Part shown: positions 1,631 through 64,000 of the stretch, piece after piece
Layout of the letters: each line of letters opens with the position of its first letter
Position numbering within the stretch: position 1 is the first letter of the stretch
Source: Bacteroidia bacterium
Lineage (GTDB): Bacteria; Bacteroidota; Bacteroidia; AKYH767-A; OLB10
Assembly: GCA_038215705.1 (NCBI GenBank)
Contig: JBBQQQ010000003.1
Span: 69,575 to 133,574, forward strand
Reading direction: 5' to 3'
Length of the DNA stretch: 64,000 bases
Translations under genes and position numbers: made by a program
Notes under the pieces: generated by a model
The model's input: the letters and a program-made list of their open reading frames with translations, nothing else
Databases searched by the model: none
Told to the model about the DNA's origin: nothing

Positions 1631-2001
1631 ATACATTAGTTGCAATATTTGTGGGTGGAGGACTTGGTAGTCTGGCCCGCTATGGTTTGGGGAAATGGGT
1701 ATCAGGAATTTTGCCGGTAACATTTCCATACGGAACGCTTGCTGCTAATATTGTGAGCGCTCTTCTCCTGGGATTGTTCCTTGGGGCCACAATAGCAAAA
1801 CCGGAAAACGATAATCAATTGCGTTTTTTAATTGCGGTCGGATTTTGTGGCGGTTTCAGCACCTTCTCCACCTTCAGTGCCGAAACACTGGAGCTGTTCA
1901 GAAACGGTTTGTTTTTTTATGCAGGGATGAATGTGATAGGTAGTTTAATTATTTGCGTACTTATGATTATGGCAGGAATGTGGATAACAAAAAATTTCTG
2001 A
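1627..2001 (+). CDS. crcB: Fluoride ion channel CrcB/FluC
   Basis: 124 aa, four TM segments. N-terminus VAIFVGGGLGSLARY and the GFCGGFSTFSTFS motif are typical of CrcB. Confidence 0.85.
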   Translation: MNTLVAIFVGGGLGSLARYGLGKWVSGILPVTFPYGTLAANIVSALLLGLFLGATIAKPENDNQLRFLIAVGFCGGFSTFSTFSAETLELFRNGLFFYAGMNVIGSLIICVLMIMAGMWITKNF

Positions 2002-2007
2002 TTTCTT

Positions 2008-2625
2008 TTAGCCTGCTTTATTCAGCATCGCAGTAACTTCTTCATCCGTCACCTCTGAAAAATCAATATAATACTGACCAACACTCCTGAAATTTTCGGG
2101 TGATTCCAGAACTATTATTTCAGTAACTCCATTCTGTAACAGCTGAAGTGTACGCGGTGATGCTACCGGTACAGCTACAATAATTTTTTCGGGTTGTTGC
2201 TGCTTTAACATCATTACAGATGCCCTCATGGTATATCCGGTTGCAATTCCATCGTCGATATTCACTACAGTTTTCCCCTTCAAAGAAACCTGATTACAAT
2301 GTCCCATATACATGGTGAAACGGTTCCATAATAATTGCCGTATCTTTTCTGATTCTTCCCTGATATAGAATTGAGGTACATCCGTGTGGCCTTCATCAAG
2401 TAATATACAGTTGAGTCCTACAGCACCTATCGCATATTCTTTATTGGTTGGATGACCAATTTTTTTTATCAACAACAAACTCAGTTTCCAGTTAAAATAT
2501 TGAGCAATCACCAATCCCATTGGAACTCCGCCACGCGGTATTGCAAGAACTACAACATCCTCAAACCTGAACTTTTCAAGAAATGGGATAAGGAATTTTG
2601 CGGCTTCTATGCGGTTGAGAAACAT
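2008..2625 (-). CDS. Phosphoribosyltransferase family protein
   Basis: 205 aa. PRPP-binding loop VVNIDDGIATGYTM and N-terminal IPRGGVPMG. Confidence 0.7.
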   Translation of the reverse strand: MFLNRIEAAKFLIPFLEKFRFEDVVVLAIPRGGVPMGLVIAQYFNWKLSLLLIKKIGHPTNKEYAIGAVGLNCILLDEGHTDVPQFYIREESEKIRQLLWNRFTMYMGHCNQVSLKGKTVVNIDDGIATGYTMRASVMMLKQQQPEKIIVAVPVASPRTLQLLQNGVTEIIVLESPENFRSVGQYYIDFSEVTDEEVTAMLNKAG

Positions 2626-2637
2626 GGTCTGCTACTT

Positions 2638-3300
2638 TCAGGGTAAATGTTTATTAAACCATTGCGCTGCTAAAAATGCTACTTGCTCAAGTGCCCCGGG
2701 CTCTTCAAATAAGTGAGTAGCATCCTGTACTACCTGTAAATCCCTTATACATGAAAGTTGAGAGAATGCCAGTTCATTAAGTTTTAACACATCATAATCA
2801 TTACTGCCTACGATCAATAAGGATGGAGCGGTCACTGAATGCAGGAAAGATGCTGCCAGGTCAGGCCGACCACCTCTAATTACTATCGCATATATCCTTT
2901 TCTTAAATTCTGCAGCTGCCATTAATGCTGAGGCGCCTCCTGTACTGGATCCAAAATAACCGATGTTTGTAAAATATAAATTTCCGGGTTCATCAAATTT
3001 CGCAGTAACAGATTTTAACCGTGAAGTCAGCAGTGGAATGTTAAACCGGTTCTCATAAATTGCATCTTCATTCGGAGTTTGCAAGTCAATTAAAAGCGTT
3101 GCCAGCCCGGAACGGTTAAATTCACTGGCTACAAAATTATTTCTTGGGCTAAACCTGCTGCTGCCACTTCCGTGGGAAAATATAACAAGAGCAGATGCAT
3201 TATTAGGAATCATGAGTTCCCCTTTAAGAACCACATTTTCAACCGGTAAAGTCAGCGTATAGTGAGTAATTGTTTCCATCCGTAAAGTAATAAATAGCAA
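2638..3300 (-). CDS. Alpha/beta hydrolase (dienelactone hydrolase-like)
   Basis: 220 aa. HGSGSS nucleophile-elbow-like motif and a GSNDYD / D..H C-terminal catalytic pattern. Confidence 0.6.
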   Translation of the reverse strand: MLFITLRMETITHYTLTLPVENVVLKGELMIPNNASALVIFSHGSGSSRFSPRNNFVASEFNRSGLATLLIDLQTPNEDAIYENRFNIPLLTSRLKSVTAKFDEPGNLYFTNIGYFGSSTGGASALMAAAEFKKRIYAIVIRGGRPDLAASFLHSVTAPSLLIVGSNDYDVLKLNELAFSQLSCIRDLQVVQDATHLFEEPGALEQVAFLAAQWFNKHLP

Positions 3301-3393
3301 ACAGTATTTAACAAAAAGTTAATATCCTATTAGCAGCTAAAAGCTTGCCATATTATCAGCCTATTGCCTAATATTGCAGTATAAACTACACTC

Positions 3394-5028
3394 ATGTTGC
3401 AAAAATATTTTTTTTACACAGTACTGGTTGTTATACTAACATGTTACAGGGCTGCTGCCACTGATCCCAATTCCCCTAAGCCAAAGCTGATTGTCGGTAT
3501 TGTAGTAGACCAGATGCGATACGATTATTTAACACGATACTGGCACCGGTTCGGAAATGACGGATTTAAGAAACTTGTTACCGAAGGGTATAATTTCACC
3601 AATACGCATTTTGATTATGTACCCACGTATACCGGGCCGGGCCATGCCAGCATTTACACAGGAACAACTCCGGCTGTTCACGGAATAATTGGAAACGACT
3701 GGTACAACCGTAATGCAAAAAGAAGAATGTATGTTACGGAAGATACTACAATTACAGGTACAGGAACCAATGCTTACGCAGGAAAAATGTCGCCTGTTCA
3801 CATGCTGACGACTACATTTTCTGATGAATTGCGCCTTGCAAATAACCTGCGATCAAAAGTTATTGGTGTAGCATTGAAGGACAGGGGTTCAATTTTGCCG
3901 GCAGGTCATTCAGCTGATGCTGCGTATTGGTTCGAAGGTGCCACGGGCAACTGGATCAGCAGCAGCTGGTATTTAAAAACGCTTCCTGAATGGGTTAATA
4001 CTTTCAATGCACGCAAACTACCTCAGGAATATGCTAAAAATCCATGGATCACATTATATCCATTAGAAAGTTATACGGCGAGTACTCCGGATGACACACC
4101 CTATGAAGATCTTTTCGCAGGAGAAAAAAAACCTGTTTTTCCTCATACTTTTCCGGCAACGAATACAAGCATGTACCAGTTATTTACTGCCACACCTTAT
4201 GGAAATACCATCACTAAAGAATTTGCCATTACGGCAATGCGGGCAGAAGAACTGGGAAAAGATTCTGTTACCGATCTGCTTGCCGTTAGTTTTTCATCAC
4301 CCGATTTTATAGGACATCAGTACGGAACTCATGCTGTGGAAACAGAAGATTGCTACCTCAGGCTTGATAAGGATATTGCTGAACTGATAAAAGCCGCAGA
4401 AGATTATGCAGGTAAAGGAAATGTGTTATTCTTTCTGACTGCAGATCACGCTGCCATTCCGAATGTAATGTTTCTTGCCGATCAGCAAATCCCTGCAGGT
4501 ATTTTCAATGATGCGCGGGCATCTGAAGCGCTTCAAAAACATTTAAATGAAATCTTCGGCATCCAAAAGTGGGTATTATCGTTTTATAACGACCAGTTAC
4601 ATCTTGACCATGAACTGTTGCGGAAAAATAAAATTGATTTGGATGTTATGACTGATGAAATCAGGAGGTTCCTTTTGAAATACAAGGAAGTTTCAAATGT
4701 GCTGACCGGAAAAGAACTTTCGGTAAATGAATATTCCTGGGGAATACGTTCACTGGTTCAAAAAGGATTTTCAGTAAAACGTTCAGGCGATGTTGTGCTG
4801 ATTCTAGAACCCGGCCTGGTGGAATATAAAAGTAAAGGTACGGATCACGGTTCGGGATATACGTACGACTCACATGTGCCGCTTCTGTTTTATGGATGGA
4901 AAATTTCACGCGGAACATCATCGCGCCATATCAATATAACTGATATTGCCCCAACAATTACGCAATTGCTCGGAATTCAGGCACCAAGCGGCTCTACAGG
5001 AACAGTCATTAAAGAACTTTTTAAGTAA
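3394..5028 (+). CDS. Alkaline phosphatase / nucleotide pyrophosphatase family protein (PafA-like)
   Basis: 544 aa with an N-terminal signal peptide. VVDQMRYDY metal-binding start and GHSADAAYW and TADHAA motifs of the type I phosphodiesterase/alkaline phosphatase superfamily. Confidence 0.75.
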   Translation: MLQKYFFYTVLVVILTCYRAAATDPNSPKPKLIVGIVVDQMRYDYLTRYWHRFGNDGFKKLVTEGYNFTNTHFDYVPTYTGPGHASIYTGTTPAVHGIIGNDWYNRNAKRRMYVTEDTTITGTGTNAYAGKMSPVHMLTTTFSDELRLANNLRSKVIGVALKDRGSILPAGHSADAAYWFEGATGNWISSSWYLKTLPEWVNTFNARKLPQEYAKNPWITLYPLESYTASTPDDTPYEDLFAGEKKPVFPHTFPATNTSMYQLFTATPYGNTITKEFAITAMRAEELGKDSVTDLLAVSFSSPDFIGHQYGTHAVETEDCYLRLDKDIAELIKAAEDYAGKGNVLFFLTADHAAIPNVMFLADQQIPAGIFNDARASEALQKHLNEIFGIQKWVLSFYNDQLHLDHELLRKNKIDLDVMTDEIRRFLLKYKEVSNVLTGKELSVNEYSWGIRSLVQKGFSVKRSGDVVLILEPGLVEYKSKGTDHGSGYTYDSHVPLLFYGWKISRGTSSRHINITDIAPTITQLLGIQAPSGSTGTVIKELFK

Positions 5029-6271
5029 TTTCCTTTGCGGGATGAATAATTACACTGAAACCTGCTTTTGCAAGGTCCTCAAAAAATGAGGGGTATGACT
5101 TTTTTACAACTTCACAGTCGTCAATTAAAACTTTGCCCGTTTTTAGTGCAACGGGTGCAATAGCCATGGCTATTCTGTGATCGTTGTACGTTTTTGCCGG
5201 CCGCAAATAATTTTTAATTCCCTTCCCCCTGTACAATTTAAATTTTGAACCTCCGCAAAAATCAGTATTAACATTAAAATTGTAAAGTTCACGCTGAAGC
5301 GCCGCTGCACGATCCGATTCCTTTAACCTGAAATTTTTTAATCCGTGCAAATCGGCTGTAATGTTTAACCCCGCACAAATAACTGCCAGGGCAGGTCCCA
5401 GGTCAGGGCAACCCGAAAAATCTTCACTGAAATATTCAGGAAGTGAGTGTGATGAAATCCTGGTCAGTGTACACCCGTCCTTTGTAAATTCAGTTGCTAC
5501 TCCCAAATTATTCATGTAATCAGAAATAACAGCATCACCTTGCAGACTGTTACGCGATAAATCTTTAATATGAATTTCGCATTGCTCCGATAATGCAGCT
5601 ATCTCATACCAGTAAGACGCTGCCGACCAGTCGGGTTCAATTATGATATCGCGGTTTTGATAACGCCCTTCCTTGATCACTACCAGGTTGTTTTCAAATG
5701 ATACATCCGCGCCAAAGTATTGCATCACCGATTGTGTCATTTTTATATAAGGGACCGAAAGAATTTCTCCTTCTATTTCAATGGTGATGCCACCCTGTAT
5801 ATAGGGGGAAATCATCATGATTGCACTTATAAACTGACTGCTTATTTCACCGCTGACACGTATTTGTTTTCCTGATAATATGGCAGGTGTTATTATAACC
5901 GGTAATTTACCTTCTTCTTTTTCATATTCAATTGAAGCTCCCAGTTGGCGCAATGCATCAACCAGCTGTGCAACAGGTCGCCTTTTCATAGCTTCGGAAG
6001 CCGTTAGTGTAACTGATTTTCCTGTAATACAAAAATAAGCCATCAAAAAACGCAATGTGGTTCCGCCTTCACCTGCATCAATAACTTCATTGCCCGACAA
6101 AAGGGCTTCGCGCAACTTTTCGGTATCGGCAGCTTTCGATAATCCTTCTATTGTAGACTTCAGTTTGCCTAACGCATGAATAATTAATACACGGTTACTG
6201 ATACTTTTTGAAGCCGGCAATTGTATTGATACCCTTATGGGGCCACCGGGATGTGTTATCTCAGCAATCAT
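5021..6271 (-). CDS. aroA: 3-phosphoshikimate 1-carboxyvinyltransferase (EPSP synthase)
   Basis: 416 aa. N-terminal LPASKSISNRVLIIHALG motif. Overlaps aroB by 4 nt and converges on the PafA-like gene. Confidence 0.9.
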   Translation of the reverse strand: MIAEITHPGGPIRVSIQLPASKSISNRVLIIHALGKLKSTIEGLSKAADTEKLREALLSGNEVIDAGEGGTTLRFLMAYFCITGKSVTLTASEAMKRRPVAQLVDALRQLGASIEYEKEEGKLPVIITPAILSGKQIRVSGEISSQFISAIMMISPYIQGGITIEIEGEILSVPYIKMTQSVMQYFGADVSFENNLVVIKEGRYQNRDIIIEPDWSAASYWYEIAALSEQCEIHIKDLSRNSLQGDAVISDYMNNLGVATEFTKDGCTLTRISSHSLPEYFSEDFSGCPDLGPALAVICAGLNITADLHGLKNFRLKESDRAAALQRELYNFNVNTDFCGGSKFKLYRGKGIKNYLRPAKTYNDHRIAMAIAPVALKTGKVLIDDCEVVKKSYPSFFEDLAKAGFSVIIHPAKEIT

Positions 6272-7371
6272 CCTGAAAGTGAATTGTAATGCTGAAGTGA
6301 ATCCAAAATTAATTCGTCAGATATTTCATTGCAGATTTCCGGAGTCCCTACATTACTGATCAGCACAAAACGAATTTTACCTGCTTCTGTTTTTTTATCT
6401 GCTTTAATGAGTTTACAAATTTCTTCAACAGCTGCTTTGCGGATGTTGCGATGAGGAAAAAACTTTGAAAATACTTCGGAAATTTCCCTTAGTGCTGTAT
6501 CGCTTAATCCGCAGACTTTATTCGAAATAAAAGATTCGCAAATCATACCGGTGGCAATTGCTTCACCATGTGACAACGGTGTGTGATCATGCGACAACGA
6601 AAAAGTTTCCAGCGCATGGCCGATGGTATGACCAAAGTTTAGGAACATCCTCTCATTTTTTTCATAAGGATCGGCTGCAACAATTTTTGCCTTTACGTGA
6701 ACTGCACTTTCCAGTGTTGATACAATTGAATTTTTGAGCGCTTCGTCAATCACTTCTCCCGGGTTATTTTTAACCATGTCCTTCAGTGAAGACCATATTT
6801 TGGGATCAGCAATTAATCCATGTTTGAGAATTTCTGCAACGCCATTTTTCCATTCCTTTTCGGGAAGTGTTTTTAAAAATACCGGATCAATTATAACTTT
6901 CTCAGGAAAAGAAAAGGTACCAATCATATTTTTATAATGATTCAGGTCTACTCCTGTTTTCCCACCGGCCGACGCATCCACTATCCCGAGAAGGGAAGTA
7001 GGGATGTTTATGAAACGGATACCCCTTTTAAAAGTAGAAGCAACAAAACCTCCAAGGTCACTTATCATCCCTCCGCCAAGGTTAATAACTATGGAATTCC
7101 GGTCAGCACCTGTGGTGAGCAACTGATCCCATGCGATTTCACATGACTTCAGATTTTTGTGCAACTCACCGGTTCCAATAATAATTTCCCGGAAAGTTTC
7201 AGGCAAAAAATCTTTTATTAAGGGAAGGCAATGCGTTTTAGTTTGCTGATCGCAAATAACATAGATACCTGATAATTTTCCAGACTGGACTGTTAAAAAT
7301 TCAGCGATCAGCCGGCCTGCTTCGTTCGTAAAAAGGATGTCGTGTTTCCCGGCATTGATAGTTTTATTCAT
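6268..7371 (-). CDS. aroB: 3-dehydroquinate synthase
   Basis: 367 aa. GGGMISDLGGFVASTFKRGIRFINIPTSLL nucleotide-binding region and metal-binding His residues, in an aroB-aroA operon arrangement. Confidence 0.9.
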   Translation of the reverse strand: MNKTINAGKHDILFTNEAGRLIAEFLTVQSGKLSGIYVICDQQTKTHCLPLIKDFLPETFREIIIGTGELHKNLKSCEIAWDQLLTTGADRNSIVINLGGGMISDLGGFVASTFKRGIRFINIPTSLLGIVDASAGGKTGVDLNHYKNMIGTFSFPEKVIIDPVFLKTLPEKEWKNGVAEILKHGLIADPKIWSSLKDMVKNNPGEVIDEALKNSIVSTLESAVHVKAKIVAADPYEKNERMFLNFGHTIGHALETFSLSHDHTPLSHGEAIATGMICESFISNKVCGLSDTALREISEVFSKFFPHRNIRKAAVEEICKLIKADKKTEAGKIRFVLISNVGTPEICNEISDELILDSLQHYNSLSG

Positions 7372-7505
7372 TTATTCAGGGTATTCTGCAAAGATAGAAA
7401 TACAAATACTTGAACAGCTGATATTTCTGATGAAATGAGAGGATTCAGGTATGTTAATCAATTCTTATCTTTGCCCTTCAATACTTTGTATTCCCCAGGC
7501 TCCTT

Positions 7506-8702
7506 ATGAATCCCGCCATTTCATCACCCGATCCACTCACCCGGCCCGTTGATTTTAATAACCTTGAAGTGGCTTTCGCAGGAAAGTCGGATGCGGATCT
7601 CACCCGTGCTTACTGGTTGTTTAAAGCAATGAGCAGTAACCTGCTTGTAAATAACGGTCCGGTTTTACTCGATACAGCCCTAAAATTGCGTTTACCTGTA
7701 ATTCCAATCATCAGAGCAACCATTTATAAACATTTTTGCGGAGGTGAAAGCATAACCGATTGCAATAAGACAATTGCGGCTCTGAAAAAGAAAGGCATTG
7801 GCAGTGTGCTCGATTATTCAGTTGAAGGCGCTGAGAGCGAAGAAAATTTTGATCATACCACAGCAGAAATTATTGCTACGGTTCTGAGAGCAAAAGGCGA
7901 TTCAGCGATTCCATTCTGCGTTTTTAAAGTAACCGGTGTTGCACGTATTGATATCCTTGAAAAAGCAAGTTCGGGTACACTTTCACCGGATGAAAAAATT
8001 GAATTTGAGTTAGCAAGTCAGCGTGTAACAAAAATTTGTGCAGCCGCCGCTGAAAATGATGTTCGTATTTTCATTGATGCCGAAGATTCCTGGATCCAGC
8101 AAGCCATTGATGATATGGCTGATGCTATGATGCAAAAACATAATCGTACGAAAGCCATCGTTTACAACACCATCCAGTTATATCGTACCGACCGGTTAGA
8201 ATTTTTAAAACATTCCCATCACAAAGCGAAAGCAGGTAATTACATCTTAGGACTTAAACTGGTTCGTGGTGCCTATATGGAAAAGGAACGGGCAAGGGCA
8301 GTGGAAAAAAATTATCCCTCACCTATTCAGCCCGATCATGCAGCAACGAATCGTGATTATGATGCGGCTCTTACTTATTGCATCGATCATTTTGGCGAAA
8401 TTGCCCTTTGTGCAGGCACACATAATGAGGCAAGCAGTCATTTACTCGTTCGGTTGATGTACGCTAAAAATATTCCGCACAATCATCCTGATATCTGGTT
8501 TTCGCAACTTTTGGGAATGAGCGACCACATCTCATCCAACCTTGCAGCAGCAGGATATAATGTAGCTAAATACGTTCCCTACGGCCCTGTGAGATCTGTA
8601 CTGCCCTACCTGATACGCCGAGCCCAGGAAAATACTTCAATTGCCGGGCAAACAGGACGCGAGCTCAGTATGATACTGGCAGAAAAAAAACGAAGAAAAT
8701 GA
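7506..8702 (+). CDS. Proline dehydrogenase family protein
   Basis: 398 aa. C-terminal LGMSDHISSNLAAAGYNVAKYVPYGPV..YLIRRAQEN motif typical of proline dehydrogenase TIM-barrel proteins. Confidence 0.85.
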   Translation: MNPAISSPDPLTRPVDFNNLEVAFAGKSDADLTRAYWLFKAMSSNLLVNNGPVLLDTALKLRLPVIPIIRATIYKHFCGGESITDCNKTIAALKKKGIGSVLDYSVEGAESEENFDHTTAEIIATVLRAKGDSAIPFCVFKVTGVARIDILEKASSGTLSPDEKIEFELASQRVTKICAAAAENDVRIFIDAEDSWIQQAIDDMADAMMQKHNRTKAIVYNTIQLYRTDRLEFLKHSHHKAKAGNYILGLKLVRGAYMEKERARAVEKNYPSPIQPDHAATNRDYDAALTYCIDHFGEIALCAGTHNEASSHLLVRLMYAKNIPHNHPDIWFSQLLGMSDHISSNLAAAGYNVAKYVPYGPVRSVLPYLIRRAQENTSIAGQTGRELSMILAEKKRRK

Positions 8703-8882
8703 GGGAATGGGAGAATGCGGGAATGGGATAATGAGGGAATGGGAGAATGAGGGAATGAGAGAATTGGATAATGAGGGAATGGGGGAATGAGGGAATGAGA
8801 GAATTGGATAATGAGGGAATGAGAGAATTAGGAAATTAGGAAAAAAATCCCTTCTACTTTTCTCCTTATGACTTATGACCAA
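8701..8882. repeat. Heptanucleotide tandem-repeat array (GGGAATG/GAGAATG/GAGAATT)
   Basis: About 20 degenerate 7-nt units read directly in the sequence, followed by the flank TTATGACTTATGACC. The array lies in the convergent intergenic gap between proline dehydrogenase and ald. Confidence 0.85.
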
Positions 8883-8891
8883 TAACATTTC

Positions 8892-10127
8892 TTATATCCT
8901 TGCCGCCATCAGCAAATTCAGATCCCGGTACGGCAGCTTACAATGTTCACTCACAAATTTATTAGTGACCGTTCCCCGGTATAAATAAATTCCGCTGCGA
9001 ACAGTTTTGTGTGCCCACAGGTATTCATCCAAACCGCCTTCTTCACCGATATTAATAAGTATGGGCGTAAAAATATTGCTCAGCGCATACGACGCTGTTC
9101 GGGGTACTCTTGAAGCAATGTTCGGAACACAATAATGGACTACACCATATTTTCTGAAAACCGGGTTGGTATGATTGGTTACTTCGGAAGTTTCAAAACA
9201 TCCACCCTGATCGATAGACACATCAATAATGACCGAGCCAAAACGCATTTCACTCACCATTTCTTCAGTCACAATCACAGGTGTTCTGCCTTCCTTGGCG
9301 TGAATGGCGCCAATGGCCACATCAGCAGTACGTAACGCCTTCATAAGGAAACTGGGAACAATGGTAGAAGTATATAATTTCTGACCCAGGTTCCGCTGAA
9401 TTCTTCTGAGTTTATAAAGATTGTTGTCAAACACTTTCACCTGTGCACCTAAACCCAATGCTGTTTTTGCAGCATACTCCCCTACCGTTCCGGCACCAAT
9501 AATTACCACTTCCGTGGGAGGTACTCCGGTTACGCCACCTAATAACTCACCTTTGCCTGACATGGTATGACTCAGGTACTCGGCGGCAATAAGAATGGAT
9601 GTGCTGCCAACAATTTCGCTCATAGCTTGTATAACGGGCAACACTTCCGTTTCATCACGCATGTATTCATAAGCAAGCGCTGTAATTTTTTTTGTTTTCA
9701 GCCGTGCTACAAAATCACGTGGCTGCATGGCAATTTGCAGTATGGATAAAAGCGTTTGCTTTTCCTGAAGCAATTCCAGTTCATTTTCAGAAGGTGGCGC
9801 TACCTTAAGTATCAGTTTGGAGTTCTTGTAAACATCCTCACAGGTATAGGCAATCTGTGCTCCTGCTTCACTGTAATCAGTATCCGTAAAATTGGCGTTC
9901 TTTCCTGCGTTGGTTTCAATCAGCACCTGGTGACCGTTATTCACCAATAGGGCTACCGATTCAGGAACCAGTGAAATTCGGTTTTCCTGAAACGAAGTCT
10001 CGCGTGGAATCCCGATAAATAAGTTCTGGTTCCTATGCCTGATCTCCAGCAAACTTTCCTGGGGCATTAACATTCCCTGCTGTACCATTGAACTCAGACC
10101 CGGCTCATTATGTAATGATTTACTCAT
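8892..10127 (-). CDS. ald: Alanine dehydrogenase / NAD(P) transhydrogenase alpha-like
   Basis: N-terminal AlaDH/PNT domain (IGIPRE..ENRISLVPESV) and NAD Rossmann motif VIIGAGTVGEYAA. The raw ORF runs to 10232, but that start overlaps tsaE; I chose the internal ATG at 10127, and the ATGs near 10088 or 10067 are also possible. Confidence 0.8.
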   Translation of the reverse strand: MSKSLHNEPGLSSMVQQGMLMPQESLLEIRHRNQNLFIGIPRETSFQENRISLVPESVALLVNNGHQVLIETNAGKNANFTDTDYSEAGAQIAYTCEDVYKNSKLILKVAPPSENELELLQEKQTLLSILQIAMQPRDFVARLKTKKITALAYEYMRDETEVLPVIQAMSEIVGSTSILIAAEYLSHTMSGKGELLGGVTGVPPTEVVIIGAGTVGEYAAKTALGLGAQVKVFDNNLYKLRRIQRNLGQKLYTSTIVPSFLMKALRTADVAIGAIHAKEGRTPVIVTEEMVSEMRFGSVIIDVSIDQGGCFETSEVTNHTNPVFRKYGVVHYCVPNIASRVPRTASYALSNIFTPILINIGEEGGLDEYLWAHKTVRSGIYLYRGTVTNKFVSEHCKLPYRDLNLLMAARI

Positions 10128-10555
10128 AAAGTTAAAGTTATAGTTCTTGCTTCCCCCCCCGTTGTTATGGAAACCTTTGCAATTTTTGATGGCAGAAGAG
10201 CTGCGATCCGCTCCGGCCATTCCACAAAACAATAATTTCCGCTGTAAAGGTAATTTTCATATCCCAAATCTAAAGCCTCTGACTCAGATTTAATCCGGTA
10301 AAAGTCAAAATGGAACACCGGCTCCCCTGTTCCCGACCTGTATTCATTCACAATGGTAAATGTTGGGCTTGTTACTACTTCCTCCACACCTAACTGACGG
10401 CATATTTCCTTAATAAATGTTGTTTTACCGGATCCCATCTCACCGTAAAACGCAAACACCCTGAATAGTCCGGCTTCAGCAAGCAGCTGCTGTGCAATGC
10501 CGGGCAATTCTGCGACAGACTTACATACCCAGCTGATTCCTGAAGCAGTTTGCAT
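10124..10555 (-). CDS. tsaE: tRNA threonylcarbamoyladenosine biosynthesis protein TsaE
   Basis: 143 aa. Walker A GEMGSGKTTFIK and the conserved FDFYR motif. Confidence 0.85.
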   Translation of the reverse strand: MQTASGISWVCKSVAELPGIAQQLLAEAGLFRVFAFYGEMGSGKTTFIKEICRQLGVEEVVTSPTFTIVNEYRSGTGEPVFHFDFYRIKSESEALDLGYENYLYSGNYCFVEWPERIAALLPSKIAKVSITTGGEARTITLTL

Positions 10556-17696: not shown

Positions 17697-17790
17697 CCTC
17701 TCATTCTCATTCTCATACACTTTTCCCCAAACTCTTCCCTTTGACACACGTCCATTCCTTATCTTCTACCCTTATGATTTATGATCTATA
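17697..17790. repeat. Heptanucleotide repeat element (CATTCTC units) with TTATGATTTATGATC flank
   Basis: CTCATTCTCATTCTCAT followed by CCTTATGATTTATGATC. Related to the element at 8701-8882. Confidence 0.7.
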
Positions 17791-17803
17791 ATTTATTCCA
17801 ATC

Positions 17804-18226
17804 TCACGCAGGAATAGCATCCTTACTTTTGAATGTTTCAAATTCGCTTTTCAGCTCATTAAAAATTTTGTCGTAATCATTTAACCGGATCTGGTAGGCA
17901 TTCCGCATCATAAGCAGGTAATCCGATACTTTTCCGTCACCACGTTGGGCATGTTCCACCTGGTTTTCGAATTGTTTAAAATCGTGTCTCATAATATCCA
18001 GGACATCCTTTTGCAAAATAATCTGATTCTGGAAATGCTCCGAGCTGGCAGGAACATCGCGCGGAGAATATTTAGCAACGATAATTCCAAGTTCATCCTT
18101 CATAGATTTTAATTCACCCTTAAAATAAAGAATTTGTTTTTGCCAGCCTTCATGCTCTGCAAGCAGGTCTGTCAGTTGTTCCTGTTTTTCCATAGATTGA
18201 ATTTTATTTAGAATTAGTATGATCAC
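17804..18226 (-). CDS. Hypothetical coiled-coil protein
   Basis: 140-aa ORF with charged, heptad-like composition. The start could instead be the internal Met at 18193. No family recognised. Confidence 0.45.
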   Translation of the reverse strand: MIILILNKIQSMEKQEQLTDLLAEHEGWQKQILYFKGELKSMKDELGIIVAKYSPRDVPASSEHFQNQIILQKDVLDIMRHDFKQFENQVEHAQRGDGKVSDYLLMMRNAYQIRLNDYDKIFNELKSEFETFKSKDAIPA

Positions 18227-46007: not shown

Positions 46008-46130
46008 TTTTTTGATTTCTGTTTTAATACTACGTTTAATCACTGTGAATGGAATTGTAGGTGTTTGGTGGTAAGACTGACTGATTTTTTCAACTCGTCA
46101 CTCGTAACTCTCCACTCGCAACTTATTTTT

Positions 46131-53129: not shown

Positions 53130-53219
53130 ATTATTAATATCAATCTTTCTATGCAGTGGTTTTACTACTGCTTTACTTTGTCAGGAAGTGATAACCTCCT
53201 CCCTGCGTTCCTTTACTTG

Positions 53220-53292
53220 CACGGGTGGAGAGACTCGAACTCCCAGCCAATGGTTTTGGAGACCACTACTCTACCAATTGAGCTACACCCGT
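53220..53292 (-). tRNA. tRNA-Trp (anticodon CCA)
   Basis: Manual fold: acceptor ACGGGTG/CACCCGT, anticodon loop CTCCAAA, T-loop GTTCGAGTC. CCA is not encoded. Confidence 0.85.
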
Positions 53293-53344
53293 AACTTTTT
53301 ATGATCTTTCTCACTGTGACAGCAGGCATCTAACTTATCCCTTT

Positions 53345-53430
53345 CAACTTCTCACCCGTCTCTCCGAGCCGGGCAGGCTTGCCACTTCTCACTTCTCACT
53401 TCTCACTTCTCACTTGTTGTATGACTTATT
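53345..53430. repeat. Repeat element: core CACCCGTCTCTCCGAGCCGGGCAGGCTTG + (CACTTCT)x4-5 + GTATGACTTAT flank
   Basis: Same core sequence as in the 62836-63100 array. Lies between tRNA-Trp and tuf. Confidence 0.8.
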
Positions 53431-53493
53431 TTCAATCCGTTTGCAGCAGTAAAATCCCGTTAAGGATCAACTGCTGCAAAAAGATATGTTTTA

Positions 53494-54681
53494 TTACTTA
53501 ATAATTTCAGTCACCTGACCGGCACCAACGGTTCTGCCACCTTCACGGATAGCGAAACGAAGACCTTTGTCCATAGCAACAGGAACAATAAGCTGAACGG
53601 TGATAGTTACGTTATCACCAGGCATTACCATTTCACGTCCTTCAGGAAGTACGATTTCACCGGTAACATCAGTTGTTCTCAGGTAAAATTGAGGACGGTA
53701 TTTATTATGGAATGGAGTATGACGTCCACCTTCTTCTTTTTTAAGAACATAGATTTCAGCTTTGAAATCAGTGTGCGGAGTAATGGATCCCGGTTTAGCG
53801 ACAACCATACCACGACGGATATCGTTTTTCTCAATACCGCGGAGCAACAAACCTACGTTATCACCTGCTTCACCTTTGTCAAGGATTTTGCGGAACATTT
53901 CCACACCTGTAACGGTTGAAGTAAGTTTTTTCTCCTGCATTCCCAGGATATCAACAGTATCGTTTGAATTGATAATTCCTCTTTCGATACGTCCTGTGGC
54001 AACAGTACCACGACCTGTAATAGAGAATACATCTTCAACAGGCATCAAAAACGGCTTGTCGATATCACGTGGAGGAATTGGAATAAAAGTATCCACGGCT
54101 TCCATAAGATCGTTAATTTTTGGAACCCATTTAGCATCATTATTCAAACCGCCCAGGGCAGATCCGCGGATGATTGGTGTGTTATCACCATCAAACTGAT
54201 AGAAACTGAGAAGTTCACGGATTTCCATTTCAACAAGATCCAATAACTCAGGATCGTCAACCATGTCAACCTTATTCATGAAAACAACAATCTTTGGTAC
54301 ACCTACCTGACGTGCAAGCAGAATGTGCTCGCGTGTTTGTGGCATAGGTCCGTCAGTTGCTGCAACAACAAGTATAGCACCATCCATCTGGGCGGCACCA
54401 GTAACCATGTTCTTTACATAATCGGCGTGACCAGGACAGTCAACGTGTGCATAGTGACGTGCTTTGGTTGAATATTCAACGTGTGCGGTATTAATCGTAA
54501 TACCACGCTCTTTTTCTTCAGGAGCGTTATCAATCGAAGAGAAATCTCTAACTTCTGCCAGACCTTGTGATGCAAGTACTGAAGTGATTGCAGCTGTAAG
54601 AGTAGTTTTACCGTGGTCAACGTGACCAATGGTTCCAATGTTTACGTGGGGTTTGGAACGATCGAATTTTTCTTTTGCCAT
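53494..54681 (-). CDS. tuf: Elongation factor Tu
   Basis: 395 aa. [15 protein letters not shown] and NKVD motifs. Confidence 0.97.
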
Positions 54682-61600: not shown

Positions 61601-62680
61601 GGATTAACTTCAACCCCAGTTCAGGGATTCATTAGCAGCACCGGTACAGGCAGGGTTCGATGGAATACCAATACCACCAGTACTTATATTTTCCCACTGG
61701 GATCAAGTATAGGCAATCCGCGTTTCCGTCCTATAGGTTTAAAACCTACCAATACTTCACTGAATACCTTTGCAGCACGTTTTGTAAATAATGATCCAAC
61801 AATTGATGGATATCCAATTACTGTTAAAGATGCAAACATCGGCAACATCAATCCTTACTGGTATCAAAAAATAAACAGTCTGACCGGCACAACCGATCCG
61901 GATGTCACATTATATTTTGACAATATTGCCGATAACATTGCACCACTACCTACACTCATTATGGCGCAATGGGCCTGGAATGCTCCTCCCGTCCAGTGGA
62001 GAGCAATTTCCGGTGTTATCATTGGCGGAGCCGCATCTCCCACGCTCTCCAGTGTTACAAAAGCTGCATGGATTTCATTTGACACTGAAAATTTCAACCT
62101 TGCACCCGAATCCACTCCGTTACCTGTTGAATTAATCAGCTTTACCGGAATGTGTAAACCCGGAGGTATTATTGTAAAATGGATAACTGCTTCAGAAACC
62201 AATAACGATTATTTCAAACTTGAAGCAAGCAGTGATGGAATCAACTTCAATGAAGTATCGATCCGTAAAGGAGCAGGAACGAAAAGTACCTCTACGGAAT
62301 ATACAGTTTTTGATACCTCTGCTGATACGTACAAAGCGAAATATTACAGATTGAAACAATTTGATTTTGACGGATCTGAAAATGAGTCGAAAATAATTCT
62401 GGTTGACTGTTCAAGGCAATCTGCTTCTTCCACCGAAATTTCAATTTTCCCCAATCCTACTTATAACGATTTAAATGTGCTGATCAACCAGACGTTTTCC
62501 GGCAAAACTAAAATCAGCATTGTAAATGTTTTAGGTCAGATTGTTTTTTCAAACGAATATTCTCTTGAATCCGGCCTTCAGCAAATCAAATTAAATCTGG
62601 GTGAATTTGCTCCTGATCTGTACCAGGTGGTAATTGAAAGTGATGATTACCGGAAAGTCTGGAAGATTGTGAAGGAATAG
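58601..62680 (+). CDS. Large T9SS-secreted protein: IPT/TIG + metzincin-like Zn-peptidase motif + 4 PKD domains + beta-rich region + type-A CTD
   Basis: 1359 aa with a signal peptide. HELGHSHQLGH (HExxHxxxxxH) is preceded by a matrixin-like FERALQTW segment. Four PKD repeats (..TFTDQSTG.PTSW.W.FPGG..). C-terminal sorting domain ISIFPNPTYNDLNV...DLYQVVI. Confidence 0.8.
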   Translation: MRILLIKMKLSLLTIAVCLFVSGDILAQCMSYHVPLHQKVMNSSVIIEGKIISKSSFWNPASDFIYTSNVIEVYKVFKGGITASQVEIITEGGTIGNSMIVAEPSLQLNVNDIGVFFMIPAGQLNPSSPRPAALQFEGYASNQSLVRYDMKSLEAIEPFTVYTDITTDIYQYITTTLNQNYSEIIPFNVFQPSNSGPSGNPVPMAFPTITSITSPSTAGTFSLVTVNGNNFGAGPYGGSRALEFRDANNGGAGFIPTPANHIISWTNTSIQAWVPTQAGSGNIRVTNDLGESTISAVTITINYNESNVNSGGVYYQPDLINDNGIGGYNFVYNTTFNGNAAAVASFERALQTWRCGTFVNFNKTGTTPTSCQALDGTNLVTFDGACALPAGVLGVSYSYYSACGFGIWYLNENDLKFRTNGTGGINWNYGPAPTAGGLFDFESVSLHELGHSHQLGHTIVPVTVMNYAVAPNTDRRTLTPVSETAGGNDIMSRSVVNNSCAPTAMVALNASNCSINAPIANFTGTPLSGCNSLTVTFTDQSTGTPTSWNWSFPGGVPAAFAGQNPPPVLYGAPGNYTVTLSVSNASGNDTETKTNYVVVNNCPPPVADFSGTPQSVCTGQQVYFVDLSTNSPTSWSWTFPGGAPGASSAQNPAVFYAAPGVYDVTLTATNPYGSGSVTKIGYITVGNCPVPPVANFSGSPTTLCAGGTVSFTDLSANSPNSWQWTFPGGTPATSIGQNPVVTYNTAGTYAVTLIASNGAGSNTATFSGYITVNVCAPPVVAFTGWPTTVCTGSSVSFADQSTNSPSSWAWTFPGGTPAASAVQNPVITYNVAGNYNVTLQATNSFGNNSLTKTTYITVATCPAFGSGLIVNDGSLIHVEPNALVTIQGGLINRDNTAANIGRVDNWGLITLTGDWTNNSSLNAFINSSPGTTELMGAAQTITGSTTTNFYNLSLTGSGIKTLTINTVAEGTLALNDRELATQGNWMHVTNAAPTAITRTGGLTSTPVQGFISSTGTGRVRWNTNTTSTYIFPLGSSIGNPRFRPIGLKPTNTSLNTFAARFVNNDPTIDGYPITVKDANIGNINPYWYQKINSLTGTTDPDVTLYFDNIADNIAPLPTLIMAQWAWNAPPVQWRAISGVIIGGAASPTLSSVTKAAWISFDTENFNLAPESTPLPVELISFTGMCKPGGIIVKWITASETNNDYFKLEASSDGINFNEVSIRKGAGTKSTSTEYTVFDTSADTYKAKYYRLKQFDFDGSENESKIILVDCSRQSASSTEISIFPNPTYNDLNVLINQTFSGKTKISIVNVLGQIVFSNEYSLESGLQQIKLNLGEFAPDLYQVVIESDDYRKVWKIVKE

Positions 62681-62835
62681 AATATATGGAAAAAGACATT
62701 AAGACATTAAGACATCAGGTCACTGAGTTATGGTGTTAGCTTAAAGTTAAACACAAGGTTGGAGGATTCTATTTTAAGGATACTTTTTATCAAGCAGGGA
62801 AGCATTGAAACCGCGTGAATAATAGATTTTCGTGC

Positions 62836-63100
62836 CACTCCGTCACTCGTCTCTCCGAGCCGGGCAAGCTTGTCACTTGTCACTTGTCACTTGTCACTTG
62901 TCACTTGTCACTTGTCACTTGTCACTTGTCACTTGTCACTTGTCACTTGTTACCCGTCTCTCCGAGCCGGGCAGGCTTGTCACTTGTCACTTGTCACTTG
63001 TCACTTGTCACTTGTCACTTGTCACTTGTCACCCGTCTCCCCGAGCCGGGCAGGCTTGTCACTCGCCACCCGCCACTCGCCACTCGCCACTCGTCACTTT
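62836..63100. repeat. Composite heptanucleotide tandem-repeat array: 3 x core CCCGTCTCTCCGAGCCGGGCAGGCTTG each followed by (TCACTTG)n
   Basis: About 30 CACTTGT units, with CACTCGC variants at the end, read directly from the sequence. Ends in CTTTATGATGC. Confidence 0.9.
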
Positions 63101-63120
63101 CCATTGTAACTTTATGATGC

Positions 63121-63149
63121 AAAAAAGCCGCTCTAACCAGGAGCGGCTT
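63121..63149 (-). terminator. Rho-independent terminator
   Basis: On the minus strand, AAGCCGCTC-loop-GAGCGGCTT followed by a T6 run, downstream of the 63196 gene. Confidence 0.7.
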
Positions 63150-63195: not shown

Positions 63196-64000
63196 TTATC
63201 TTCGAATAACCTCAAACTTTTTATAAATGAGGCCTTTTTCTGTTTTGATAGCCAGGAAATAAAAACCCTGGGAAAATGATGTGGTAGCAATTTTGATTGC
63301 TGAACCCTTATTTTCGGAAGTGGCGACGAGCAGTCCTATATGATTATATATTTCATAACCTGTAATATCAGCTACTCCGGAACGTACGAACAATTGTTCA
63401 TTGGCAGGATTAGGATAAACTGAAATAGAATTTTCTATCTCTGCCAGTTCATTGATTCCAACAGAAGCTGCTGTGTCAATCACAATAGAATCAATTTCCG
63501 TATTGATCAATAATTGATATTCTGATGCAGTGATTGCTTTAATGTCACTCAGCACAATTGGCATGGTAACTTTGGCACCGACATTGTCGACAATCACAAT
63601 TCCTAACCGTGCAAGAAAACCGAAACCGCTTAAATTCTGCTGATCATTTCTTACAAGTGCCATGTCAATTTTACCCTGTGACATAAGATCTTTATGGAAA
63701 GCAATCAGGTCGACCTGTGCATCACCTAACCAGCAACCGGTGTAATCAACATCGAGATAATTGGATGCTATAAGGCTGGTATCGATGTTGACCGTAAACG
63801 CAATACCATAAATACTGTCAACAGGTAATGCAGAAGTACCCAAGAAAATATCTATTTCGCAGGTGTCGCTCAGGTAAGCAGTATCGGGGTTAGCAACAAG
63901 ATATAATACGGGTGCGGGTAATTGGCTGGTTACAGGATTTGATAATCGTGGTGCATGGAAAAATCCATAGTTTAAAGAGACTGCTGTTGTATCATCAGCG
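63196..64000 (-). CDS. T9SS type-A CTD-containing secreted protein (partial, N-terminus beyond window edge)
   Basis: C-terminal SVYPNPANEQLFV...GFYFLAIK sorting domain. My manual translation of the frame shows it stays open from 63843 to 64000, so the ORF-track Met (a TTG) is internal. Confidence 0.65.
   Translation of the reverse strand, partial: ADDTTAVSLNYGFFHAPRLSNPVTSQLPAPVLYLVANPDTAYLSDTCEIDIFLGTSALPVDSIYGIAFTVNIDTSLIASNYLDVDYTGCWLGDAQVDLIAFHKDLMSQGKIDMALVRNDQQNLSGFGFLARLGIVIVDNVGAKVTMPIVLSDIKAITASEYQLLINTEIDSIVIDTAASVGINELAEIENSISVYPNPANEQLFVRSGVADITGYEIYNHIGLLVATSENKGSAIKIATTSFSQGFYFLAIKTEKGLIYKKFEVIRR

Follow-up and report, generated by a model that had tools for sequence, protein, structure and literature searches.

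A composite heptanucleotide repeat array with an embedded GC-rich core present at two intergenic loci of an uncultured Bacteroidota bacterium

Anatomy of the array and its genomic context

A 64,000-nt stretch of contig JBBQQQ010000003.1 from an uncultured bacterium of the phylum Bacteroidota, hereafter the window, to which all positions refer, contains a composite tandem repeat array at 62836-63101. The array is located within a 515-bp spacer between two convergent genes that end at 62680 and 63196. It is formed of heptanucleotide units with the sequence CACTTGT and of three copies of a 27-nt sequence, referred to here as the core (consensus CCCGTCTCTCCGAGCCGGGCAGGCTTG), which differ from the consensus at zero to two positions and are each followed by a run of heptamers (Table 1). 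The initial annotation of this DNA described a composite array with three embedded cores, and the description is correct apart from small details. The runs contain 11, 7, and 6 units, instead of the 7-12 units that had been assigned to each of them.

The central part of the array is formed of 18 identical perfect units, and the units at both of its edges are degenerate; the third run constitutes one such edge. The distances between successive cores are 107 and 79 nt. Both values equal 7k + 2, and the core is thus out of register with the heptamers. The core can be read as a 23-nt insertion within a single heptamer, CAC(CCGTCTCTCCGAGCCGGGCAGGC)TTGT. The GC content of the consensus core is 74%, compared to 42% for the window, and the plus strand of the array contains 37% C and 19% G. 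When read on the minus strand, the composite has the order (GCGAGTG)n-core-(ACAAGTG)n-core-(ACAAGTG)n-core. Tandem Repeats Finder (TRF) assigned scores of 226-322, and its period-7 solutions have copy numbers of 23.1, 5.6, and 4.7, with respective scores of 226, 64, and 66. Sequences within three mismatches of the core occur four times in the window, whereas 0.00 occurrences are expected based on 100 shuffles.

Plus-strand open reading frames (ORFs) of 100, 111, and 79 amino acids cross the array, because all three frames are open, and none of the three has a match in Pfam. A period of seven nucleotides is not a multiple of three and cannot encode a stable reading frame; the ORFs are therefore spurious, as had been remarked in the initial annotation, and a coding reading of the array was rejected.

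Table 1. Repeat units and associated features in the window, and content of the orthologous tuf-tRNA-Trp spacer in related lineages
Feature	Position	Strand	Description
Core copy 1	62846-62872	+	CTCGTCTCTCCGAGCCGGGCAAGCTTG; 2 mismatches to consensus
Heptamer run 1	62874-62950	+	CACTTGT x11, all perfect
Core copy 2	62953-62979	+	CCCGTCTCTCCGAGCCGGGCAGGCTTG; identical to consensus
Heptamer run 2	62981-63029	+	CACTTGT x7, all perfect
Core copy 3	63032-63058	+	1 mismatch, T to C in putative loop
Heptamer run 3	63060-63101	+	6 diverged units: CACTCGC, CACCCGC, CACTCGC, CACTCGC, CACTCGT, CACTTTC
Intrinsic-terminator-like hairpin	63125-63149	-	9-bp stem and T tract; belongs to the minus-strand Por_Secre_tail gene
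Probable decayed array material left of core copy 4	53308-53354	+	TTCTCACT, GCAGGC...CAACTTCTCA; 74% identical to "core end + heptamers"
Core copy 4	53355-53381	+	Exact; 30/30 identical to consensus including TCA flank (53352-53354)
Heptamer run at tuf locus	53383-53417	+	CACTTCT x4 and CACTTGT x1; AGAAGTG on the transcribed minus strand
Stem-loop directly after tuf stop	53435-53485	-	Kept in relatives L115, L118, L123, L130
Weak core-less remnant in rpoB-rpoC spacer	46092-46126	+	5 degenerate units: AACTCGT, CACTCGT, AACTCTC, CACTCGC, AACTTAT
tuf spacer, window			(AGAAGTG)5 + core
tuf spacer, L118			(AAGTGNN)9
tuf spacer, L115/L116			(CCAACTG)5 (TCTACTG)3
tuf spacer, L123/L124			(ACCGNTG), approximately 4 units
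tuf spacer, L130/L131			(GGTCANC)4 facing inverted (ACCGNTG)3
tuf spacer, L117, L125-L128, L129			No array

The gene to the left of the array encodes a 1359-residue PKD protein with a Por_Secre_tail domain. Directly after its stop codon there are 2.9 copies of the short repeat AAGACATT (62693-62715). The gene to the right is encoded by the minus strand, also has a Por_Secre_tail domain, and continues past the edge of the window (63196-64000). Its product is orthologous to a 1447-residue protein of relative L123, with 67.5% sequence identity. A 215-residue ORF with a TTG start listed in this region is merely the C-terminal portion of the large Por_Secre_tail protein. The hairpin that belongs to this gene, read from 63149 to 63125, is the sole canonical intrinsic terminator in the spacer, and the array starts approximately 25 nt beyond it in the minus-strand direction. 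No plus-strand intrinsic terminator was found between the PKD gene and the array.

The core is present in a second array between tuf and tRNA-Trp

A fourth copy of the core lies 9.5 kb from the large array, between the minus-strand genes for tRNA-Trp (53219-53292) and tuf (53494-54681). The initial annotation had reported a core accompanied by CACTTCT units at this place, and both elements are present there, together with a single CACTTGT unit. The core and its flank are identical at the two loci over 30 of 30 positions, whereas the heptamer variants next to them differ. The identity of the 30-nt sequence in two separate arrays provides direct evidence that array material moved between loci. 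The junctions of the tuf-locus core, TTCTCA|CCCG and GCTTG|CCACTTCT, are unique and differ from those in the large array.

The two loci have the same layout on the same strand: at the tuf locus, the stop codon of tuf is followed by a stem-loop and then by (AGAAGTG)n and the core. The DNA to the left of the fourth core probably represents a decayed combination of a core end and heptamers, as judged from its similarity to such a sequence, which would fit an array undergoing growth and erosion. The stem-loop (GCAGCAGT...ACTGCTGC; positions 10065-10115 in L115) is kept in several relatives, while the remaining part of the spacer turns over. It has no U-tract, and no terminator was called at its position; a role as a signal for processing or attenuation is conceivable. 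The 5' part of the core (CACCCGT, GTCTCTCC; 53352-53368) has a 7-mer and an 8-mer in common with the 3' end of tRNA-Trp (GAGTCTCTCCACCCGTG; 53219-53240). The order of the two common segments is permuted and their orientation inverted, and the resemblance is possibly due to chance.

Units of the same family are also present in the spacer between rpoB and rpoC, where a degenerate CACTCGT version of the repeat had been annotated. Only five degenerate units are found there; the remnant does not include a core, and its TRF score of 31, with 73% matches, is not significant on its own. CACTTGT, CACTTCT, CACTCGC, and (A/C)ACTCGY thus constitute one unit family at three loci of the window. The element had been called genome-dispersed. 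It is dispersed in so far as four cores occur at two loci, or three loci if the weak remnant is counted, and the extent of the dispersal that this establishes is that within 64 kb.

The window contains additional short-period arrays. Approximately 17 G-rich octamers (GGGAATGA / GAGAATGG / GATAATGA) with a higher-order period of 40 nt are positioned at 8694-8836, between the convergent genes 7506..8702 (plus strand) and 8892..10220 (minus strand). The octamer resembles the G-quadruplex-prone GGGAATC heptamers of Xanthomonas (PMC4692102). Two copies of CTTATGA (8865-8879) directly follow the stop codon of gene 8892..10220, and three copies of TCTCAT (17699-17716) and 3.6 copies of TTATGAT (17772-17796) follow the stop codon of the minus-strand gene 17804..18193.

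The core has no features of a palindromic, transposable, or structured RNA element

The initial annotation proposed that the repeat is an element similar to repetitive extragenic palindromic (REP) sequences or miniature inverted-repeat transposable elements (MITEs), or a variable number tandem repeat, and suggested folding of the core. For both RNA and DNA, and for each of the two strands, the stability of the folded core does not exceed that of its shuffled versions. The z-scores of the RNA folds relative to dinucleotide shuffles are between -0.4 and -0.8, for the core alone or with its flanks. The best DNA fold is an interrupted 7-bp stem on the minus strand with an energy of -6.9 kcal/mol (z = -2.0). 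The REP reading was rejected based on the absence of a stable palindrome and on folds that do not exceed those of shuffled sequences.

Neither of the two core-bearing loci contains terminal inverted repeats, the only inverted repeats found being two terminator-type hairpins and chance-level pairs of 8-15 nt, and a MITE reading was rejected on these grounds. No target-site duplication is recognizable at either locus, where the core is flanked by heptamers and a short duplication would look like repeat units. It is the simple repeat part of the earlier proposal that agrees with the features of the arrays; the large array is a putative variable number tandem repeat, a type defined by copy numbers that differ among the strains of a species.

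The only hits above the gathering thresholds of Rfam 15 in the window are tRNAs. At E-values of up to 1, no Rfam match overlaps the arrays except for a sub-threshold match to Vax2os1_2 at 53278-53389, with 9.8 bits relative to a gathering threshold of 55. A structured RNA was rejected based on the Rfam results and the folds; the four near-identical copies of the core provide no covariation that could be scored. The region is also not an array of clustered regularly interspaced short palindromic repeats (CRISPR), as the "spacers" between the three cores are heptamer runs of 77 and 49 nt and not unique sequences.

Homologs of the core were not found in relatives or in sequence collections

The relatives used for comparison comprise 17 loci (L115-L131) from seven lineages besides that of the window. 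The nucleotide sequences of their tuf genes are 84-92% identical to that of the window, and the relatives are therefore different species. The database proteins P0001 and P0002, each a "477-aa EF-Tu", were considered as pointers to same-species contigs and rejected as chimeric calls with an internal duplication of domain II/III.

The core is absent from all 17 loci, even when up to seven mismatches are allowed. A 25-mer from the core had no matches in the metagenome contig collection, and the junction of the core with heptamers had none in the viral contig collection, in which (CACTTGT)x4 retrieved four short, unrelated arrays. The 18-mer CCGAGCCGGGCARGCTTG had 114 matches listed among genome contigs, all of them single, mostly in GC-rich genomes and at chance level. 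Outside the 18-mer, the listed matches differ from the core at four or more positions, and none of them is flanked by heptamers. Within 956 kb of fetched DNA, the search for a donor or partial relative of the core returned only chance matches, including a 9-nt match, AAGCTTGTC, between core copy 1 and a palindrome of L129. The core thus appears to be a lineage-specific GC-rich sequence.

Heptamer arrays turn over in the spacers of related genomes

The orthologous tuf-tRNA-Trp spacer contains a period-7 array in five of the eight lineages, the window included, and at least four different units are used; the remaining three lineages have no array (Table 1). In all array-bearing lineages, the array starts just downstream of the post-tuf stem-loop. 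This turnover is a comparison between species. Independent assemblies carry identical arrays at the same site in three cases (L115/L116, L123/L124, and L130/L131), which indicates that the array class is not an assembly artefact. In L130 (1535-1610) and L131, the two facing repeats are approximately 20 nt apart and could form a long hairpin. L123 and L124 keep just the right arm of this facing pair.

The rpoB-rpoC spacer and that downstream of the PKD gene have no homology to the corresponding spacers of the relatives. The initial annotation stated that the repeat inserts inside highly conserved regions, which is an overstatement: conservation applies to the genes, whereas no homology among the relatives is seen in the tuf-tRNA-Trp, rpoB-rpoC, and PKD-downstream spacers. 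In L129, the spacer that follows the PKD orthologue (1777-2224) contains 18 copies of GCAGTA, three of GAACCGCT, two tandem copies of a 49-nt GC-rich palindrome, and eight copies of AACAAACC. This composite parallels the anatomy of the window array in that GC-rich units are placed within short-period arrays; its sequence is unrelated. The rpoB and rpoC genes of L129 (14609-21188) are split into many small ORFs, suggesting indel errors, and the repeat counts from this sequence need caution.

Period 7 accounts for 10 of the 16 short-period arrays found in 168 kb of sequence from the window and seven non-redundant relatives. Block shuffles of the same 168 kb contain zero period-7 arrays and approximately one array in total. 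Heptamer arrays are a property of this lineage of Bacteroidota, and the comparison shows the spacers in its otherwise rigid tuf-secE-nusG-rpl-rpoBC region to be hotspots of repeated heptamer-array birth and death.

Arrays with the (AAGTGNN)n pattern are common in environmental contigs

At least 120 metagenome contigs, whose GC contents range from 29 to 73%, contain the pattern (AAGTGNN)x5. Among the contigs listed, 21 of 120 arrays are positioned at contig ends, because such arrays break assemblies, and approximately 15 are inverted pairs of the form (AAGTGNN)n-spacer-(NNCACTT)n. For 16 of 26 cases from the environmental contigs listed, no more than 15 nt separate the start of the array from the stop codon of a co-oriented ORF. 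This association is partly built in, since AAGTGA-type units contain TGA in all three frames. The statistics of ORF orientation are weak for this reason and because every frame of the opposite strand is open, and the gene contexts were derived from crude ORF calls. A non-heptamer insert interrupts five of the 120 listed arrays, and none of the inserts is similar to the core from the window. Contig L188 contains a true higher-order repeat of an array and a unique segment of approximately 110 nt.

The same contigs contain 157 further short-period arrays at distances of more than 500 nt, 87 of which have period 7. The AAGTG family constitutes 26 of these 87 arrays (30%, compared to 1.3% expected for random heptamers), with approximately two-thirds of the 26 originating from the single contig L169. 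L169 (JFJP01022119.1) is 16 kb long and carries approximately ten inverted pairs of (AAGTGAG)~4 and (CTCACTT)~4 along positions 1900-9800. Each pair could form a stem of approximately 28 bp, which may act as a REP- or terminator-like hairpin. Contig L137 contains 54 copies of TTATGAG (142-517) together with AAGTG-type arrays.

Origin of the array

The most probable explanation, to which we assign a probability of about 65%, is that the region is a non-coding intergenic heptanucleotide simple sequence repeat (SSR) array that was built by slippage and unequal exchange, with the core being copied between arrays. The array is positioned between convergent genes for proteins secreted by the type IX secretion system (T9SS), in a spacer that would be selectively relaxed. 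Slipped-strand mispairing during replication would expand and contract the 7-nt unit, giving rise to a homogeneous center and decaying edges. Slippage on a larger scale, or unequal exchange, may have duplicated the segment composed of the 27-nt core and n heptamers, which would account for the periods of 107 and 79 nt and for the presence of three cores. The core may have been copied between the large array and that in the tuf-tRNA-Trp spacer, in either direction. The likeliest route would be ectopic gene conversion or template switching, for which the near-identical heptamer tracts could serve as homology. The core itself would be a passenger that tags the copying between arrays, and neither a hairpin element nor the end of a transposon. 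The occurrence of arrays in the tuf spacer of relatives that lack the core shows that arrays do not depend on it. An essential function of the array is improbable, and its length would at most have a modulating effect on the transcription or termination of the neighboring genes.

Several considerations weaken this explanation. Whereas the anatomy of the array, its non-coding nature, its membership in the heptanucleotide SSR class, the turnover among relatives, and the lack of MITE and REP features are shown by the sequences, we infer slippage, unequal exchange, and conversion between arrays from the pattern of the repeats. The relatives compared are other species. Selection on a small hairpin or a binding site, instead of recent copying, could explain the exact conservation of a 27-30-mer with 74% GC in a genome with 42% GC. 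The presence of three CACT(T/C)N(T/C) loci on the same strand within 64 kb suggests dispersal beyond simple local slippage. Finally, a difference at one of seven positions makes heptamer tracts unfavorable for RecA-type conversion, unless the tracts were still identical when the transfer took place.

It is possible, although unlikely, that the arrays are functional cis-elements at the 3' ends of genes, which would serve as phased sites for protein binding or, like Rho utilization (rut) sites, as tracts that load Rho. Each heptamer might bind one molecule of a putative single-strand nucleic-acid-binding protein of the cold-shock or S1 type, as CspB does with one protein per heptamer, and as has been proposed for S1, Csp, and CsrA proteins and the TAACTGA repeats (PMC4679880). 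In another variant, the C-rich and G-poor strand, which has 37% C and 19% G, would be a putative Rho tract that ends read-through or antisense transcription, in line with the lack of an intrinsic terminator on the plus strand after the PKD gene; at tuf and rpoB, however, the C-rich strand is antisense to the genes. The core would be a putative protein-binding or hairpin punctuation mark. In the window, as in many environmental contigs, arrays closely follow terminator hairpins or the ends of ORFs (within 15 nt of a stop codon in 16 of the 26 environmental cases), but the presence of TGA in the AAGTGA-type units contributes to this association. Similarly, a period-7 array recurs at the tuf spacer in five of the eight lineages despite the turnover of its sequence, but its absence from the other three indicates that arrays are dispensable, and the sequence of the unit is not conserved. 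Furthermore, in the relatives examined, arrays are lacking both downstream of the PKD gene and between rpoB and rpoC, except for the unrelated ones with units of 6-8 nt that follow the PKD gene in L129.

We consider it doubtful that the core and heptamers together form a small non-autonomous mobile or dispersed element, of a MITE-like, REP-like, or new type, that enters intergenic DNA and seeds arrays there as a by-product of its insertion or replication. The exact sequence of 27-30 nt at two loci 9.5 kb apart, the foreign composition of the core relative to the window, and the presence of the unit family at a third locus are features expected of such an element. The core is also lineage-specific and absent in the relatives, as a recent invader would be, and a minisatellite-bearing MITE has been reported in another member of Bacteroidota (PMC4596501). 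However, there are no terminal inverted repeats, recognizable target-site duplications, or significant palindromes at the two loci, and the flanking heptamer variants differ despite the identity of the core. The core-less arrays in the tuf spacer of the relatives indicate that arrays predate the core and do not need it. The core had no matches in the metagenome and viral collections, and inserts were found in only five of the 120 listed environmental arrays, none of them core-like.

It is very improbable that the array, its copy numbers, or the core at the tuf locus are artefacts of short-read metagenome assembly caused by collapse, expansion, or chimeric graph traversal: the source is a contig of an uncultured metagenome-assembled genome, the class often breaks assemblies (21 of the 120 listed arrays), and the 265-bp array exceeds a typical short read, but the unique junctions of the tuf-locus core must exist in reads, the distinguishing mismatches of the three cores in the large array anchor their order, and independent assemblies of relatives carry identical arrays.

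The array alone is ordinary, as descriptions of intergenic heptamer SSRs in bacteria date back to 2007 or earlier. Such repeats are usually of practical use in strain typing, and they call for caution in gene calling and assembly. What is unusual about the array described here is only the 27-base GC-rich insert that is repeated within the array and copied to a second one. Movement between loci is the step that was left unexplained in the literature for genome-specific heptamer families. A bolder proposal, which we regard as a long shot, is that the 30-nt core is a natural "barcode", which would show that arrays at different loci are related by copying and not by independent slippage. The broader version of this proposal, in which (AAGTGNN)n arrays would be a cross-phylum functional class of 3'-end elements, refers to their commonness across contigs of 29-73% GC and to the frequent inverted pairs abutting stop codons, and is a long shot as well. 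Should many arrays in the complete genome turn out to be tagged by the core, the composite would represent either a new type of dispersed element without terminal inverted repeats or the footprint of an array-copying process. It would then offer the first handle on the genome-wide spread of species-specific heptamer families, as seen in Xanthomonas, Nostoc, Beggiatoaceae, and Bacteroidota.

Comparison with known repeat systems

REP sequences, stable imperfect palindromes that reach copy numbers in the hundreds, are linked to REP-associated tyrosine transposases (RAYTs) of the IS200/IS605 Y1 type. Like REPs and the bacterial interspersed mosaic elements (BIMEs), the core is a short GC-rich extragenic sequence, of a kind often clustered after the 3' ends of genes. 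Unlike them, it has no significant hairpin, and only four copies were seen in the window.

A MITE that contains a minisatellite is known from Porphyromonas gingivalis (PMC4596501). It is reported to be a tandem array in a dispersed intergenic element of a Bacteroidota member, which is similar to the arrangement in the window. Inverted termini are expected of that element, given its definition as a MITE. The array in the window has no terminal inverted repeats, and its non-repeat part is inside the array and not around it.

Short tandemly repeated repetitive (STRR) sequences of cyanobacteria, reportedly described by Mazel et al. in 1990, comprise tandem heptamers that are scattered through non-coding DNA in families particular to each genome. 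Three tandem heptanucleotides of Calothrix PCC 7601 are mentioned in PMC4692102. The likeness to the window arrays is one of kind only, both being tandem heptamers; the phylum differs, as do the units, and no sequence relationship is claimed. Membership in the cyanobacterial STRRs was rejected because the relatives of EF-Tu and the T9SS domains place the host in Bacteroidota.

TAACTGA repeats have been described in Beggiatoaceae, Cyanobacteria, and five Bacteroidetes, with up to 43 copies in some Bacteroidetes (MacGregor 2015, PMC4679880). The Bacteroidetes spacers that contain them hold other heptamer arrays and are shorter and repeat-free in close relatives, and no mechanism of their dispersal was evident (PMC4679880). 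Both the TAACTGA repeats and the window arrays are intergenic direct repeats of heptamers that form long arrays and are found in regions of ribosomal-protein operons. They differ in the unit and in the embedded core, which was not reported for TAACTGA. In 'Maribeggiatoa', two to six TAACTGA copies are located immediately upstream of start codons, whereas the long arrays in the window are downstream of gene ends or terminators.

Heptanucleotides are the most abundant class of long SSRs in prokaryotes, and it was proposed that the 7-nt length reflects the footprint of the polymerase and favors slippage (Mrazek et al. 2007, as cited in PMC4679880 and PMC4692102). Approximately 90% of the heptameric SSRs in Xanthomonas (GGGAATC) and Nostoc (GGGGA(T/C)T) are intergenic; their mean distance from the upstream ORF is 28 nt, inverted pairs occur among them, and closely related genomes differ extensively in these repeats (Rehm et al. 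2015, PMC4692102). The window arrays differ from them in their uncultured Bacteroidota host and in the CACTTGT / ACAAGTG unit, which is not rich in G-tracts, so that the G-quadruplex idea is inapplicable. The 27-nt non-heptamer core embedded in a higher-order repeat is a further difference and is not described in PMC4692102 or PMC4679880. The similarities include tandem 7-nt units in intergenic DNA near ORF ends, one unit family at several loci, occasional inverted pairs, changes in length and sequence between related genomes, and slippage as the proposed mechanism. The window arrays exhibit every feature of the heptanucleotide long-SSR class that was examined here.

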